Below, in pieces: positions 16,624-24,365 of a stretch of DNA of 32,000 nt. The DNA is taken from contig NZ_CP011391.1 in NCBI RefSeq assembly GCF_001564455.1, positions 2,430,001-2,462,000 on the forward strand, read 5' to 3'. The position numbers were made by a program, and so were the translations under genes. Under the pieces are notes generated by a model. The model was not told the origin of the DNA and made no database searches. It saw nothing but the letters and a program-made list of their open reading frames with translations. Source of the stretch: Faecalibaculum rodentium. Lineage in GTDB: Bacteria; Bacillota_I; Bacilli_A; Erysipelotrichales; Erysipelotrichaceae. Position 1 is the first letter of the stretch, and each line of letters begins with the position of its first letter.

Positions 16624-18669
16624 TCACATCATGTGCAGGCAGATGGAATCCCAGATCCGCCGGGGATCATGTGTGTCGCAGATATCCGCAAACCCGGGAT
16701 CCTCCAGGAGTTTCAGAAGTCCGGCCATGGCAGTGAGATGAGATGGGGTGCCCTGCGGTACACTCAGGGCATATGCATATTTGACAGGATCGTTTTCCGG
16801 ACTGCCGAAAACCACAGGGGTTTCGAATACAGTCAGAGAGAGCCCCTGCTGCCGGGCACCGTGCTCTGCCGCCGTATGGAGCAGGGCTGTATGGGGAGCA
16901 ATCACCACATAGGGACCCGCCAGATCCATACCTGCAATGGTACGCCTTATGTATTCTTCAGTGATCATTCCCCGCTCCTGTAGTGGGGCATAGGCTATGC
17001 GCACTGCCTCCGGACGGGTTTCACACTGTACGTGTGTGCGGATAAGGCCTGGATCCATCATGCTGAGCAGCCCCTCTTCCTTCGTCTGAAATACTGGATC
17101 TTTTCGGGCAAAGAGTGCAGAAAGAGCATGTCGCAGCTCTTCCTCTTTCTGAATCCTGCAACAGCGCCGGATGACGGAGAGAATCATATCCACAGAAGGA
17201 ATACCAGCTTCCTGCCCGAGCAAAGAATTGACCTCACGTAATACAAGAAGCTTCTCCTGTTCATCCATAACCGGACTCACCGTGACCACTGGAATCCCGG
17301 TTTCAGGGATTCTTGTCAGGCTGCGGGCTGCAAAAATGATATCCGGCTGCTTGTGCCCGCTCCAGTGCTCCAGAGAATCGGCGGTTTCGAACTCCAGTTC
17401 CGGGAACAGCTCCGTGAGTACTGAGTGCAGAATGGCGGAGGACCCTATGCCGTTTCGGCAAAGGATAAGGGCCTGTTGTCGGGTATCCTGGACAGAAGGA
17501 TGCATTCCTTCATACAACGCGGCAAAATGCATGGTCAAATAGGCGATCTCGTCCTCCGGAAATTTTTTCTGTGCCAGCCGACTGGCAGGATTCACAGCCC
17601 GGGCGACGATTTGATACAGGTCTTTGTACTCCTGTTTCACTTTTTCTGTCAGGGGATTGAGTATGGGAATCCCATAGAGGAGACGGTAATATGCAGGTCG
17701 TATATGAGAGTAGAGTTTGACAAACATATCCTCGGGTCGGGGGGCCCGAATCCCCGTAAGCTGTTCGAACCGGCTCATGATCCGTCCGGTGATGTCTGCA
17801 ATCAGCAGGCAGTCTTCGGTGTCCTCATAAACACTCCCGAAGGAAATTCCCAGGATCCAGGATGTGAGCCAGCTCACTTCTTCTGTCTCCATGAAAGCTG
17901 CACTGCCAGTGGCCTTCAGCAGAGACTGCACGAACTGTTTTTCAGGACAATCCGCCATTTCCTTATGAACATCCCCGTGGATTCCTGTGTTACAGATCCT
18001 CATTTTCAAAAACAGGTAGATGTAGATAAATTCCGTCATGCGGTCAGCCGCAAACTGGATACCGTATTTAGTGGCAAGTTCCAGACAAATAGCCTCGGTT
18101 TCCTGAAACGTATCCGCCTGTGTATTTTCTAGAAACAAATCGAAAAGCTGCACATCCGCAATGGCGGCAATTTCCTTCATGACCTCCAGTACCAGATACC
18201 GGCGAAGATCCGTTTCCTTTCCCTGCAGGACATATCCCTTCCGGCGGTCGGAAAACAGCTGTATGCCGTTGGTTTCCAGTGATTGCCGCAGCTGCCGAAG
18301 ATCTCCCAGAACGGTGTTTCTGGATACATCCAGAGCTTCCATGAAATCCGACAGGATCAGATGATCCCGGCCTTCAAACAGCATGAGATACAGAACCAGC
18401 TGGCGCTGAGCGGGCGTGAATTCGTATTCATGCAGCCGTGCTCCACCTCCCACCGCTGTCAGCAGCGCCTTGCGGGTCAGGGGAGCGACATCCAGTACAC
18501 TCCCGGGAATGATAGGCGGCACTTTGTATGGTCGAAGGACCTGGTTGATTTTCTCCAGTCGGTAAAATACTTGGCGGCGCGTGAGCCCTAGTGCCTGTGA
18601 AATTTCGTCCACAGTCATCCGCTTTTTAGACGCCACTAGCCGGCTCATGGTTTTCAGTTCCGTTTCCAT
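16624..18669 (-). CDS. PRD-domain transcriptional regulator of the MtlR/LicR type (HTH, 2 x PRD, EIIB-like, EIIA-like)
   Basis: N-terminal HTH (MTVDEISQALGLTRRQVFYRLEKIN) with a second wHTH. Central PRD-like helical regions contain conserved His. An EIIB-like segment (ALILCRNGIGSSAILHSVL) and a C-terminal PTS_EIIA_2-like segment (VVIAPHTALLHT...NDPVKYAYALSV) follow. I prefer the start at the ATG at 18669. Confidence 0.8.
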   Translation of the reverse strand: METELKTMSRLVASKKRMTVDEISQALGLTRRQVFYRLEKINQVLRPYKVPPIIPGSVLDVAPLTRKALLTAVGGGARLHEYEFTPAQRQLVLYLMLFEGRDHLILSDFMEALDVSRNTVLGDLRQLRQSLETNGIQLFSDRRKGYVLQGKETDLRRYLVLEVMKEIAAIADVQLFDLFLENTQADTFQETEAICLELATKYGIQFAADRMTEFIYIYLFLKMRICNTGIHGDVHKEMADCPEKQFVQSLLKATGSAAFMETEEVSWLTSWILGISFGSVYEDTEDCLLIADITGRIMSRFEQLTGIRAPRPEDMFVKLYSHIRPAYYRLLYGIPILNPLTEKVKQEYKDLYQIVARAVNPASRLAQKKFPEDEIAYLTMHFAALYEGMHPSVQDTRQQALILCRNGIGSSAILHSVLTELFPELEFETADSLEHWSGHKQPDIIFAARSLTRIPETGIPVVTVSPVMDEQEKLLVLREVNSLLGQEAGIPSVDMILSVIRRCCRIQKEEELRHALSALFARKDPVFQTKEEGLLSMMDPGLIRTHVQCETRPEAVRIAYAPLQERGMITEEYIRRTIAGMDLAGPYVVIAPHTALLHTAAEHGARQQGLSLTVFETPVVFGSPENDPVKYAYALSVPQGTPSHLTAMAGLLKLLEDPGFADICDTHDPRRIWDSICLHMM

Positions 18670-18804
18670 GGCTTTCCTTTCCTGTTCTCTTTCTTCTGTA
18701 TTTTCTCCTCTGCCTGCAGGAGGCCTGGCTCTCTGTCTCCTCGTGTTCTCCGCTCGCTCCATTACACCTGTCACCGCAGGCTGGTCCAGGTCATGCACAG
18801 AGTC

Positions 18805-18840
18805 GCAAAAGCGGTTCAGAGGCAGAATCTGAACCGTTTT
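18805..18840 (-). terminator. Rho-independent terminator ending the PTS/aldolase operon
   Basis: CGGTTCAGA (18812-18820) pairs with TCTGAACCG (18828-18836). T-runs occur on both strands. Confidence 0.6.
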
Positions 18841-18921
18841 CGTTACATCTGTATTATGATTGTACCCCGGTTAATGTTCGAATAATATGACTATTCAGAC
18901 TGCCGTGGGGCAGAGCCGTGA

Positions 18922-19566
18922 TCACAATGTGCGTGACTGATCAATGATTCGCCGGATGTTGCGGGCATTCCGGGCGATTTCCTCCTCGGTGCCTTTGGTG
19001 AGCAGGCCGCCAAATCCGCACACATCGCAGTCGCGCCGGATATAGTCCGCCAGATTGTCCAGTGTGATGCCGCCGCTCGCAAGGACTGGCAGGTCAGGAA
19101 TCGGGGTCTTGAAGACACTCACCAGTTTCGGGCCGTAAAAATCCGAGATTGGAAATGCCTTGATAAACGCCGCTCCCAGTTCCAGGGCTTTCACGGCTTC
19201 CGTAACCGAAGTGCACCCGGGCATGTACGGGACCTGGTACCGGCTGCAGACTCGGGCACAGGATTTGGAGAGGTTTGGGGCAATGACGAACTGGGCATCA
19301 TGCAGGATCACCTCCCGGGCGGTTTCGCCATCCAGCACAGTTCCGGCTCCCACCAGCAGTTCCCCGGGAAACTTCTTTCTGAGATGGGCAATGAGTTCGG
19401 GGGCGTTGTTGTTCGTGCAGGAAATCTCCATGACATAGATGCCGCCGGCCAGACAACCCCTGGCGATTTCTTCCGCCCGTCGGCAGGAAGTGGTACGCAC
19501 AATGGCCATGGCACCGCAGTCTGCGATCCGACATGTGATGTCGGCTTTTTTCAGAAACGGCCTCAT
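18922..19566 (-). CDS. KDPG/KHG aldolase family (Eda-like, class I)
   Basis: Eda pattern: AIVRT, GGI.VMEI, VGAGTVLD, FVI.P, PGC.T.TE, KAFP, and GGI at the C-terminal end. The start overlaps the upstream gene stop (ATGA). Confidence 0.75.
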   Translation of the reverse strand: MRPFLKKADITCRIADCGAMAIVRTTSCRRAEEIARGCLAGGIYVMEISCTNNNAPELIAHLRKKFPGELLVGAGTVLDGETAREVILHDAQFVIAPNLSKSCARVCSRYQVPYMPGCTSVTEAVKALELGAAFIKAFPISDFYGPKLVSVFKTPIPDLPVLASGGITLDNLADYIRRDCDVCGFGGLLTKGTEEEIARNARNIRRIIDQSRTL

Positions 19567-20492
19567 GCTGCTGTCTTTGACTCCCCGCTGGCCCGCGCTG
19601 CCCGCTGTCGATAACCATTCACCATGGTTTCCACGCGCCGGATGTCCTCCGGCCGTAGTTCTCTCACAGGTTTCCGTGCAGGACCGGCTTCGCAGGAACC
19701 GTTGAGTTCCACGGCTTTCTTGAGTACCGAAGGCACTGTGCCCAATGGCAGGACCGCCCGAAGTGGTTCAATGGCGGCCTGGAGCCTTTCTGCCTCATCC
19801 TGGTCGCCGGCACGCAATGCCCTGTCCAGTCCTGTGAGGATATCTGGAATGAGATTGGAAGTTCCGGCCACAGCCCCGGAGGCACCAAGACCATACGCCA
19901 GGGAGATCTTCGAGTCGCTTCCCACCAGCAGCCTGAAGTCCTTGCGCCGGGCAATGTCGGCATAGGCTTCCAGAAGCGCCGGATCGCCGGAGCTGTCCTT
20001 GATGGCAGCGATCCCCGGCAGATCTGCCAGACGATCCACCAGATCCGGGGATAGAGTGCCACCGGTTGCCTTTGGGATGTTGTACAGGATCACCGGCAGA
20101 CTGGTGCTTTCCGAAACCGCCTTAAAGTGCTCATACAAATCCTCCCGCGAAGGCTGCAGAAACCATGGATTGATTACTGACAGGGCATCTGCGCCCGCAG
20201 CTTCCATGTCCCGGGCCAGCTGTATGGCTTCCTTCGTCGAACAGGCACCTGCCCCTGCGTATACCGGCACCCTGCCGGCAGCGGCCTTGACTGCACAGCG
20301 AGTCACAGCGACTTTCTCGTCATGATCCAGAACATGAAATTCGCCATTGGATCCCAGAACGAAGATTCCCTTCACCCCGTGATCGATCAGCCAGTTGATC
20401 TGCGCCGTCAGGGCCTGCTCATTCACACTCTGCTGGGCATCCCGGCGAAAGGGTGTGATCACCGGGGTGATGATTCCTTCAAACAGTTCCAT
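19563..20492 (-). CDS. DapA/NanA-family (dihydrodipicolinate synthase-like) class I pyruvate lyase
   Basis: MELFEGIITPVITPF, GIFVLGSNGEF, a central YNIP motif (VILYNIPKATG), and AIKDSSGD. The start was set at the ATG at 20492 with an AGGAGGAAACC RBS. Confidence 0.8.
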   Translation of the reverse strand: MELFEGIITPVITPFRRDAQQSVNEQALTAQINWLIDHGVKGIFVLGSNGEFHVLDHDEKVAVTRCAVKAAAGRVPVYAGAGACSTKEAIQLARDMEAAGADALSVINPWFLQPSREDLYEHFKAVSESTSLPVILYNIPKATGGTLSPDLVDRLADLPGIAAIKDSSGDPALLEAYADIARRKDFRLLVGSDSKISLAYGLGASGAVAGTSNLIPDILTGLDRALRAGDQDEAERLQAAIEPLRAVLPLGTVPSVLKKAVELNGSCEAGPARKPVRELRPEDIRRVETMVNGYRQRAARASGESKTAA

Positions 20493-24172: not shown

Positions 24173-24224
24173 GTATTCACCTCCTTTGTCTGACATGGCC
24201 ATGTCGTTCTTTACGTCTCCATCA

Positions 24225-24238
24225 TAAAAGCGCTTACA
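24225..24238. promoter_or_regulatory. cre-like (CcpA catabolite-responsive element-like) site upstream of the PTS operon
   Basis: The site reads TAAAAGCGCTTACA, or TGTAAGCGCTTTTA on the operon strand. It fits WTGNAANCGNWNNCW with one mismatch and lies 53-66 bp upstream of the EIIA ATG. Confidence 0.4.
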
Positions 24239-24257
24239 GTACCAAAAAAGTCCAACC

Positions 24258-24278
24258 TTTGTCGGAGTTTCTGACAAA
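24258..24278. promoter_or_regulatory. Inverted repeat TTTGTCGG-N5-CTGACAAA upstream of the PTS operon (candidate activator site)
   Basis: Read directly; 7 of 8 arm positions pair. It lies about 90-105 bp upstream of the EIIA start, distal to the cre-like site. Confidence 0.35.
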
Positions 24279-24365
24279 ATTTGTATTGAAATCCAGAACA
24301 GAAGGCCATGCATTATAAACGTTTATCGAGAAACTGTGTGATAGTATGTTGCTTTTGCAATATAA

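Follow-up and report, generated by a model that had tools for sequence, protein, structure and literature searches.

What does a carbohydrate uptake system related to the L-ascorbate transporter do beside a sugar-phosphate isomerase and members of three pyruvate-releasing enzyme families? The question is raised by an operon of seven genes in Faecalibaculum rodentium, encoded on the minus strand between positions 24172 and 18922 of a 32,000-nucleotide (nt) stretch of DNA (NZ_CP011391.1, 2,430,001 to 2,462,000), here called the window. Our comparisons indicate a real and widespread catabolic operon composed of known protein families, for which we found no earlier description, and there is a moderately high chance that it represents a new pairing of substrate and pathway. 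The reading that we favor, at somewhat less than an even chance, is a substrate-inducible and catabolite-repressible operon for uptake by a phosphotransferase system (PTS) and breakdown of an acidic sugar other than ascorbate, by a general ulosonic-acid scheme. As a hypothesis, the leading candidate for the substrate is 3-deoxy-D-manno-octulosonate (Kdo), whose 8-phosphate (Kdo-8-P) would be split into pyruvate and D-arabinose-5-phosphate (A5P), the latter being isomerized to D-ribulose-5-phosphate (Ru5P); this more specific proposal is possible but doubtful.

The open reading frames (ORFs) of the window were scanned with Pfam and NCBIfam, and the enzymes were aligned to solved structures. A preliminary description of this DNA had reported seven co-directional genes from EIIA to Eda, their families, their spacing, and a terminator behind them, all of which hold. 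The first three genes encode the PTS: EIIA (24172-23723; 149 amino acids [aa]; PF00359, 121 bits), whose best NCBIfam match, ascorbate IIA, scores 96 bits and thus falls below the cut-off of 187; EIIB (23648-23367; 93 aa; PF02302, 40 bits), which is 96% identical to the 93-aa gene called in the related locus L001; and EIIC (23282-21984; 432 aa; PF03611, 346 bits), a member of the ascorbate/galactitol PTS superfamily. After a gap of 99 nt come an accessory class II (metal-dependent) pyruvate aldolase of the HpcH/HpaI family (21884-21117; 255 aa; PF03328, 89 bits), a KpsF/GutQ-type sugar-phosphate isomerase with a SIS domain and no CBS domains (21126-20479; 215 aa; PF01380), a class I Schiff-base pyruvate lyase of the DapA/NanA family (20492-19563; 309 aa; PF00701, 247 bits), and an Eda-like class I aldolase of the family acting on 2-keto-3-deoxy-6-phosphogluconate (KDPG) and 2-keto-4-hydroxyglutarate (KHG) (19566-18922; 214 aa; PF01081, 101 bits). 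The isomerase and the DapA-like lyase belong to the core of the cluster, and the Eda-like aldolase is a frequent but not universal member. Successive genes of this second group overlap by 10, 14, and 4 nt, and AGGAGG stands 6 nt 5′ of the ATG of the DapA-like gene. A scan of the minus strand for terminator-like sequences found none inside the 99-nt gap, which measures only ∼22 nt in the closest genome. Behind the Eda-like gene lies a hairpin with a T-run that resembles an intrinsic terminator (18836-18807, minus strand; 9-bp stem, 7-nt loop, CUUUUG tail); it is kept in L008, the nearest genome locus, which belongs to an uncultured Faecalibaculum sp. of the mouse gut, and a part of it is deleted in L001.

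Homologues were collected by searching with the SIS protein and inspecting the contigs, the metagenome scan comprising 80 loci, and were annotated by tblastn with the window proteins; we call a locus full-flank if it extends for at least 3.5 kb to either side of the SIS gene. Seventeen full-flank loci have an ascorbate-type PTS and a DapA-like gene directly 3′ of the SIS gene. Since this gene order is repeated in at least 17 full-flank loci from different taxa and samples, it is not a product of chance. Among the 17 clusters, Eda is found in 15, HpcH in 13, a ∼160-aa protein in nine, and a split transketolase in five. SIS relatives with at least ∼56% identity lie mostly within the same cluster (a DapA-like gene is nearby in 18 of 27 full-flank loci); the remainder of these, and most relatives below that identity, form a kinase-linked sister clade.

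The cluster is carried by Erysipelotrichaceae, Clostridium, Clostridioides difficile, Enterococcus faecium megaplasmids, and Pelosinus. A C. difficile replicon (L171, NZ_CP149720.1) and the E. faecium megaplasmids (L172, NZ_CP050649.1) both show the order PTS-SIS-"dapA"-Eda-regulator, Clostridium zeae has regulator-EIIBC-SIS-DapA-like-Eda-transketolase, and Pelosinus propionicus has a minimal cluster of regulator-EIIABC-SIS-DapA-like only, without Eda. HpcH is absent from L086, L088, and L171 (C. difficile, C. zeae, and Pelosinus being among the relatives that lack it) and is not listed in the gene table of the E. faecium plasmid, which is incomplete. It is also the most divergent of the proteins, with 42%-55% identity where EIIC has 75%. 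From these comparisons, the invariant unit appears to be the PTS, the SIS isomerase, the DapA-like lyase, and a regulator, with HpcH and Eda as accessories. The emphasis that had been placed on three aldolase families as the essence of the operon is thus not upheld. A genome scan with the HpcH alignment, using back-translated patterns that were too narrow, returned four true clusters and, in addition, ∼75 HpcH genes that are unrelated and have no PTS beside them; these came from Planctomycetota, Verrucomicrobiota, haloarchaea, and other groups.

Most relatives contain, between the DapA-like and Eda genes, the additional ORF of ∼160 aa (for example, L003:11513-11992, L006:12271-12753, and L089:11529-12011), which has two N-terminal transmembrane helices as judged by eye and no Pfam match; it is absent from the Faecalibaculum-like lineage (the window, L001, and L008). 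The cluster on a metagenome contig from long reads (L004) is disrupted by insertions of the IS66 and IS110 families (2794-5133 and 8585-9783), with EIIC split and HpcH separated from the SIS gene, and the operon appears to be dispensable and decaying in that strain.

The EIIC of this PTS is homologous to UlaA. It exceeds the cut-offs of NF009553 (455 bits, cut-off 423) and of NF006919, ascorbate IIC (414.6 bits, cut-off 380), and it matches the solved UlaA structures 5zov and 4rp8 with 186 and 158 bits. In Escherichia coli UlaA, vitamin C is contacted by T86, Y87, H135, I136, Q139, H194, Q195, D314, I358, F362, and M410 (PMC6048161). We mapped these contacts onto EIIC through its alignment to the Pasteurella UlaA structure, outside of which M410 falls. 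Seven of the 10 alignable contacts are replaced (T86, Y87, H135, I136, Q139, Q195, and I358 by V, T, Q, H, Y, F, and G, respectively), and only H194, D314, and F362 are retained. The same replacements are present in 31 orthologous EIICs, and the residues of the elevator, transport, and phosphotransfer functions are kept: S59, R288, and the two glycines of the pivot, G58 and G286. A UlaA-like machine is thus conserved, with a different pocket that is under its own constraint.

Neither the operon nor the annotated parts of the 32-kb window (the flanks were scanned in part) encode UlaG, UlaD, UlaE, or UlaF, nor a kinase, dehydrogenase, or dehydratase, in agreement with the preliminary description; UlaG/D/E/F are likewise missing from every related cluster examined. 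Because the pocket contacts are replaced and no UlaG/D/E/F gene is present, the operon does not appear to be an ascorbate system. It has in common with E. coli UlaABC the superfamily and the division of EIIA, EIIB, and EIIC into three separate proteins. In place of the lactonase, decarboxylase, and epimerases of the E. coli regulon, however, it has pyruvate lyases and a SIS isomerase, and its regulator is of the PRD activator type, whereas the E. coli ascorbate regulon is governed by the DeoR-type UlaR.

Among the NCBIfam models, the SIS protein matches KpsF/GutQ and KdsD best (TIGR00393, 120.7 bits, cut-off 203.7), and it consists of a single domain without the tandem CBS pair. The five catalytic residues (Lys, His, Glu, Glu, and His, in GIGKPG, EAVHG, SNSGE, VQEEG, and WHPGG) align to A5P-isomerase positions; in E. 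coli KdsD we take these to be Lys59, His88, Glu111, Glu152, and His193. The subfamily as a whole has the signature GIGKPG, EAVHGS[SAC]GQ, SNSGET, EGDxLN[KR]xPRxS, and HPGGxLG. It shares fold and catalytic residues with KdsD, GutQ, and KpsF of Kdo biosynthesis, and the reaction proposed for it is theirs, run in the catabolic direction. It differs from them in its missing CBS pair, in two altered motifs, in a host without lipopolysaccharide (LPS), and in its catabolic context.

The best solved relative of the SIS protein (5uqi, 103 bits) is c3406 of E. coli CFT073, as shown by the 100% identity of 5uqi to the gene at 3,250,609-3,251,205. c3406 is reportedly a biochemically proven A5P isomerase without CBS domains, encoded in a PTS operon for an unknown sugar. 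It thus resembles the window's protein as a single-domain enzyme within a PRD-controlled PTS operon for an unknown carbohydrate, and it demonstrates that a proven isomerase may likewise lack CBS domains. The two differ in that c3406 has the canonical HGDLG and LGLAPS motifs. The operons around them are also distinct: c3405-c3410 comprises a Glc/Mal-family EIIBC, a MalY/PatB-like pyridoxal-phosphate enzyme, a 2-hydroxyacid dehydrogenase, and a PRD antiterminator, and no aldolases. We therefore rejected the idea that the window carries the same operon as CFT073; a search of E. coli genomes at the DNA level gave no match.

An independent line of evidence comes from the sister SIS clade, which has HGSCG and 49%-63% identity. 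In 37 metagenome loci (L108, L119-L124, L127-L131, L133-L141, L143, L146, L149-L151, L154-L162, L167, and L168), the sister gene (∼10001-10600 in full-length loci) is located directly 3′ of a ribokinase-like PfkB kinase gene or is fused to it, as in L123:8990-10600. A ribose-type kinase would need no isomerase for ribose or fructose. These loci carry ABC or SusCD/MFS transporters, and seven of the 37 have a DUF2961/GH172 gene nearby; GH172 enzymes are exo-α-D-arabinofuranosidases that release D-arabinose (PMC10115798). The arrangement looks like an undescribed two-step route in which a kinase would convert D-arabinose to A5P and the isomerase would convert A5P to Ru5P. Such contexts fit a subfamily acting on A5P in catabolism and would provide circumstantial, independent support for it.

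Other PTS-linked members of the clade adjoin a mannose-family PTS, a D-2-hydroxyacid dehydrogenase, and aldolases that are Eda-like, DapA-like, HpcH, RraA-like, or of the transaldolase/fructose-6-phosphate aldolase (TAL/FSA) family. The recurring theme is an isomerase, an aldolase, and a phosphorylating uptake step. In two variant clusters, a TAL/FSA-family gene stands beside SIS or in its vicinity (L101:9286-9972 and L106:2151-2819). FSA-type enzymes can make A5P from glycolaldehyde and glyceraldehyde-3-phosphate (G3P) or split it, and these genes are another hint to A5P.

The catalytic residues of all three aldolase families are in place, including the Schiff-base lysines of the DapA-like and Eda-like proteins and the metal ligands of HpcH, and the catalytic motifs of the operon's enzymes are conserved across 19-34 orthologues. 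Each of the three proteins scores under the equivalog cut-offs of its family. The DapA-like lyase has the Schiff-base lysine (AIKDSSG; Lys161 of dihydrodipicolinate synthase [DHDPS]) and the tyrosine of LYNIP (Tyr133). It has GSNGE for GTTGE (Thr44/Thr45) and PWF for PYY (Tyr107 to Phe; PWFLQP), and it lacks Arg138, which binds aspartate semialdehyde (YNIPKATG). Its TIGR00674 score of 198.8 bits is slightly under the cut-off of 206.15, and it resembles DHDPS and YagE more than NanA (NCBIfam nanA, 125 bits, cut-off 382). It would seem to be a pyruvate lyase and not a DHDPS of lysine biosynthesis.

In the Eda-like protein, the Lys (IKAFP), Glu (MEIS), Arg (AIVR), Thr (GAGTV), and GG loop are found on alignment to Thermotoga maritima KDPG aldolase, and the scores remain below the curated cut-offs (PRK06552, 184 against 238 bits; TIGR01182, 137.9 against 156). 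In HpcH, the motifs DLEHG, VRVP, QIET, and GPCDLS align with the catalytic and metal-binding His, Arg, Glu, and Asp of YfaU (presumably H49, R74, E153, and D179) and are invariant in the orthologues. The characterized specificities RhmA, HpaI, and GarL score only 69-87 bits against cut-offs of 369-441, and the best solved relative is an uncharacterized protein, 3qz6. The window's aldolases thus have family and catalytic residues in common with the Entner-Doudoroff and 2-keto-3-deoxygluconate (KDG) aldolases Eda and DgoA and with GarL, RhmA, and HpaI, but they differ from those systems by their scores under the cut-offs and by the absence of a dehydratase or kinase that would supply the usual substrates.

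All three families use a 2-oxo acid, pyruvate, as the leaving unit. Since a PTS delivers a phosphorylated substrate and all three families release pyruvate, the simplest closed pathway for the core is the cleavage of an ulosonic acid phosphate followed by isomerization, and the two core enzymes alone would be enough to yield central metabolites. EIIC would import a 3-deoxy-2-ulosonic acid, and EIIA and EIIB would phosphorylate its terminal primary hydroxyl, as their families suggest. The DapA-family lyase would then cleave the phosphorylated acid to pyruvate and an aldose phosphate, which the coupled SIS isomerase would convert to a ketose phosphate of the pentose phosphate pathway, most simply A5P to Ru5P, as its homology to c3406 and the gene neighborhoods of its clade suggest. 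The Eda-type and HpcH-type enzymes would be accessory and may widen the range of keto-deoxy acids or take over the cleavage step, and in some relatives the split transketolase would link the product to glycolysis. The earlier proposal of a phosphorylated ulosonic acid split into pyruvate and a pentose-5-phosphate that is then isomerized fits the conserved core of PTS, DapA-like lyase, and SIS protein resembling A5P isomerases.

If the isomerase acts on A5P, the acid would be Kdo-8-P, with Ru5P as the product. Kdo biosynthesis is missing from the monoderm hosts (Erysipelotrichaceae, Clostridia, and enterococci), and where Kdo is not made, A5P would be a dead end unless isomerized, which would explain why the isomerase is never missing and why it is so strictly coupled to the lyase. 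A parallel exists in sialic-acid catabolism (NanA with NanT, SiaPQM, or SatABCD), where a Schiff-base lyase of the DapA/NanA family also cleaves an imported ulosonic acid, giving pyruvate and an aldose that is then processed. The window differs from it in having no NanK or NanE and in a lyase that is nearer to DHDPS and YagE; we know of no sialic-acid system that uses a PTS.

Several observations weigh against this reading. Compared with KdsD, c3406, and the Bacteroides fragilis A5P isomerase, the subfamily has HGS[SA]GQ for HGDLG and LN[KR]xPRxS for LGLAP[ST]xS. In the window the two motifs are HGSSGQ and LNKPPRAS, so that neither the canonical HGDLG nor LG(L/M)(A/T)P(T/S)xS is present, and this is true clade-wide. 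These changes in two motifs of the active site make the substrate of the subfamily less than certain; it could differ from A5P and perhaps be more anionic. The simple scheme also fails to predict the pairing of SIS with a D-2-hydroxyacid dehydrogenase in the variants with a mannose-family PTS (L111, L114, L115, L118, and L145). In uropathogenic E. coli, c3405 and c3406 likewise pair a dehydrogenase with a SIS protein (CFT073, L173:19591-21206), there with a glucose-family PTS, and the E. coli and Firmicute dehydrogenases of these pairs are homologous (30% identity, E = 2e-48). Characterized lyases of the DapA/NanA family mostly take unphosphorylated acids, the retention of up to three pyruvate aldolases is not explained by the scheme, and ascorbate is, to our knowledge, the sole proven PTS substrate of this EIIC family. 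It is because of the motif changes, the dehydrogenase pairing, the multiple aldolases, and the preference of such lyases for unphosphorylated acids that we place the general scheme just below an even chance and hold Kdo as its substrate only tentatively.

Among the alternatives, the one that survives best keeps the scheme and changes the acid, although we regard it as unlikely. The substrate would be KDG or 2-keto-3-deoxygalactonate (KDGal), giving KDPG or 2-keto-3-deoxy-6-phosphogalactonate (KDPGal) for Eda, or 3-deoxy-D-glycero-D-galacto-nonulosonate (Kdn), giving mannose-6-phosphate, or a 3-deoxy-heptulosonate, giving erythrose-4-phosphate (E4P), with each aldolase serving one chain length or C4 epimer. 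That three aldolase families are present does suggest several related substrates. The Eda-like protein, found in 15 of the 17 clusters, has the phosphate-loop glycines typical of KDPG aldolases, and some variants have Eda and no DapA-like gene beside SIS (L114). Cleavage of KDG, KDGal, or heptulosonate would, however, give G3P or E4P and need no isomerase, yet SIS is the invariant member; G3P, E4P, and mannose-6-phosphate would be handled by housekeeping enzymes. The SIS protein also resembles the pentose-level A5P isomerases and not SIS enzymes of the phosphoglucose or phosphomannose isomerase type.

The altered motifs and the dehydrogenase pairs bear on a second and rather unlikely alternative, in which the isomerase acts first. 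The PTS would import a keto- or aldehydo-sugar acid (a 2-, 3-, or 5-keto-hexonate, or a breakdown product resembling those of ascorbate), SIS would shift its carbonyl to C2, and the aldolases would give hydroxypyruvate or pyruvate and a triose or tetrose phosphate. The gain of Lys/Arg and loss of Asp near the active site of the SIS subfamily could accommodate a carboxylate, and the known substrate of the transporter family is an acidic lactone. The repeated link of the clade to D-2-hydroxyacid dehydrogenases would also be accounted for, as that family includes 2-ketoaldonate and hydroxypyruvate reductases, and HpcH-family enzymes accept hydroxypyruvate. But the sister clade linked to kinases shares this Lys/Arg motif, and it is accompanied by neither aldolase nor acid-sugar genes and lies beside genes of the D-arabinofuranosidase type. 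The window's operon encodes no reductase, lactonase, or decarboxylase, and we know of no SIS enzyme that isomerizes acid-sugar phosphates.

A third possibility, to which we give a small chance, is a PTS for a neutral pentose such as D-arabinose that delivers A5P directly, leaving SIS as the sole dedicated enzyme and the aldolases to other or salvage functions; alternatively, SIS would make A5P as a regulatory signal, as has been proposed for GutQ and the Clostridium tetani enzyme. The sister clade needs only a kinase and SIS, and A5P isomerases do occur in PTS operons of unknown logic (c3406 and gutQ). A regulatory role has been considered possible for a Gram-positive A5P isomerase (PMC5758725). 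Against this, the SIS and DapA-like genes share 14 nt in the window and are adjacent in every cluster of the ascorbate type with enough flank, which argues for one pathway. The ascorbate-family EIIC suggests an acidic substrate, and most PTS-linked SIS loci with enough flank have at least one pyruvate aldolase, L101 having only its TAL/FSA-family gene.

The weakest candidate, a variant operon for L-ascorbate or erythorbate utilization as the automatic name of EIIC implies, has in its favor that EIIC passes the ascorbate-IIC equivalog cut-off, that its orthologues in C. difficile and E. faecium appear in RefSeq as ascorbate transporters, and that split transketolase genes, which often adjoin Ula-type PTS operons, adjoin the cluster in some relatives, but its probability is very slight given conserved replacements at most vitamin-C contacts, the absence of UlaG/D/E/F from all clusters examined, and the lack of any role for pyruvate lyases in the known route.

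The gene that follows the terminator-like hairpin (18669-16624, minus strand; 681 aa) encodes a PRD-containing, PTS-controlled transcription regulator with two HTH regions, a PRD, and an EIIA of the Mtl/Fru type (PRD, 81 bits; EIIA_2, 59 bits; HTH_11, 39 bits; Mga, 26 bits; Pfam also finds HTH_Mga). From the HTH-PRD-PRD-EIIB-EIIA architecture described previously, the HTH, one PRD, and the EIIA are recovered. No PRD match was obtained in residues 200-340 of the 724-aa ORF, where a second was sought, and the EIIB-like region is weak (PTS_IIB, 18.3 bits, cut-off 23.6). Most relatives have a homologue of this regulator beside their cluster. The protein resembles the MtlR, LicR, and ManR activators in its N-terminal HTH/Mga, PRD, and C-terminal EIIA, and its gene adjoins the PTS that it presumably controls; it differs from these in that no second PRD is detected and the EIIB-like domain scores only weakly. 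We propose that the regulator would activate the operon when the PTS is busy with its substrate, and that CcpA would repress it.

Approximately 190 nt 5′ of EIIA are nearly identical among the three genomes (the window, L001, and L008), whereas coding DNA is there only ∼80% identical. Within this region is a cre-like site, TGTAAGCGCTTTTA (24238-24225, minus strand), which is identical in L001 and L008 and agrees at 13 of 14 positions with TGWAANCGNTNWCA, which we take to be the cre consensus. It is probably a CcpA operator for catabolite repression, judging from its match and conservation. A second block, TTGCAAAAGCAACATACTATCACAC (24335-24360, minus strand), is near-identical in the three genomes, with neighboring DNA diverged, and holds a short palindrome, TTGC-AAAA-GCAA (24360-24349); it is a candidate site for binding of the PRD regulator, or it may belong to the promoter. 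Neither inspection by eye nor a scan revealed a convincing sigma-70 promoter. The leader also contains a small hairpin, UCCGAC/GUUGGA followed by U6 (24242-24266, minus strand), which was matched by the scan for terminator-like sequences and is conserved in L001 and L008. A riboswitch or antiterminator RNA in the leader was considered and rejected, there being no Rfam match and a folding energy no better than that of shuffled sequence.

Of the two upstream elements noted previously, the cre-like site is kept in both relatives, and the inverted repeat is real but is not a conserved operator. The repeat (13 bp and perfect, followed by TTTATATTG; 24405-24367, minus strand) is not conserved in sequence in L001 or L008, by which we ruled it out as an operator. 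Since it also trails the remnant of a decayed gene, it is probably the terminator of that gene and not part of the operon's control. Overall, the preliminary interpretation is partly supported: the families that it assigned hold, the catalytic residues that it asked about are in place, and the Ula genes are missing, as it said; its emphasis on the aldolases does not stand, and a second PRD and an EIIB domain are not detected with confidence in the regulator.

The remnant (24579-25066, minus strand) is a frameshifted and internally deleted copy of a 323-aa ORF without a Pfam match that is intact in L001 (5610-6581), and it appears to be a decayed gene between a methyltransferase gene and the operon. 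More generally, the window is collinear with L008, at 69%-86% DNA identity over aligned blocks, and the flanking genes (glgB, an MTS methyltransferase, DUF3737, and a cation-efflux protein) have no link to sugar acids. Next to the regulator gene is a small histidine-rich ORF (16108-16605, minus strand; HHGHHGHPHHMGHGCPHGHHGHKPGHG) that belongs to no Pfam family. A 129-aa gene occupies the same position beside the regulator in L001, and a cation-efflux (CDF) gene adjoins the histidine-rich ORF in L001 and L008; its product is possibly a metal-binding protein. Further away, a segment of ∼6 kb (∼9022-15005) beside a tRNA gene (8932-9017) has no counterpart in the syntenic L001 and L008. The products of its genes are a response regulator, a histidine kinase, an ABC ATPase, and a 785-aa protein without a Pfam match that is possibly a Bce-type permease. 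Given its insertion beside a tRNA gene, the segment is likely a horizontally acquired module, for peptide sensing or detoxification.

In L171 and L172, RefSeq uses the label "dapA, 4-hydroxy-tetrahydrodipicolinate synthase" for the DapA-like protein, "PTS ascorbate transporter" for EIIC, and "BglG family transcription antiterminator" for the regulator, although the window's regulator has DNA-binding HTH domains. Residue checks on the window's orthologues indicate that the labels "ascorbate PTS," "dapA," and "BglG antiterminator" are probably wrong or misleading. The view that the gene combination is not a described pathway stands: full-text literature searches gave no description of the gene set, no paper combining the names of its components, and no genes described for the catabolism of Kdo. 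According to a paper of 2023, E. coli has no annotated Kdo aldolase; EC 4.1.2.23 is listed in a survey of orphan enzyme activities, papers of 2007 and 2023 regard it as lacking an assigned gene, and according to a 2018 paper the role of A5P isomerase in Gram-positive bacteria, including some C. difficile strains, is unknown.

The comparative data define a wider catabolic SIS family, paired either with a PTS and aldolases or with a ribokinase-like kinase. The cluster is common among gut Firmicutes, C. difficile and the E. faecium megaplasmids included. Identifying its substrate would reveal an additional nutrient niche of these organisms and would give a physiological role to the puzzling A5P isomerases of Gram-positive bacteria. 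Should the substrate prove to be Kdo, which we consider doubtful, the operon would be the first genetically defined pathway of Kdo catabolism and its transporter the first PTS for an ulosonic acid. The DapA-family lyase would then be the phosphorylated counterpart of the orphan Kdo aldolase EC 4.1.2.23, providing genes for an activity left without any since the 1960s, and the presence of A5P isomerases in bacteria without LPS would be explained. Gut and soil Firmicutes would scavenge Kdo from the LPS or capsules of Gram-negative bacteria or from plant rhamnogalacturonan-II, revealing cross-feeding on sugars of the Gram-negative cell envelope or of pectin.

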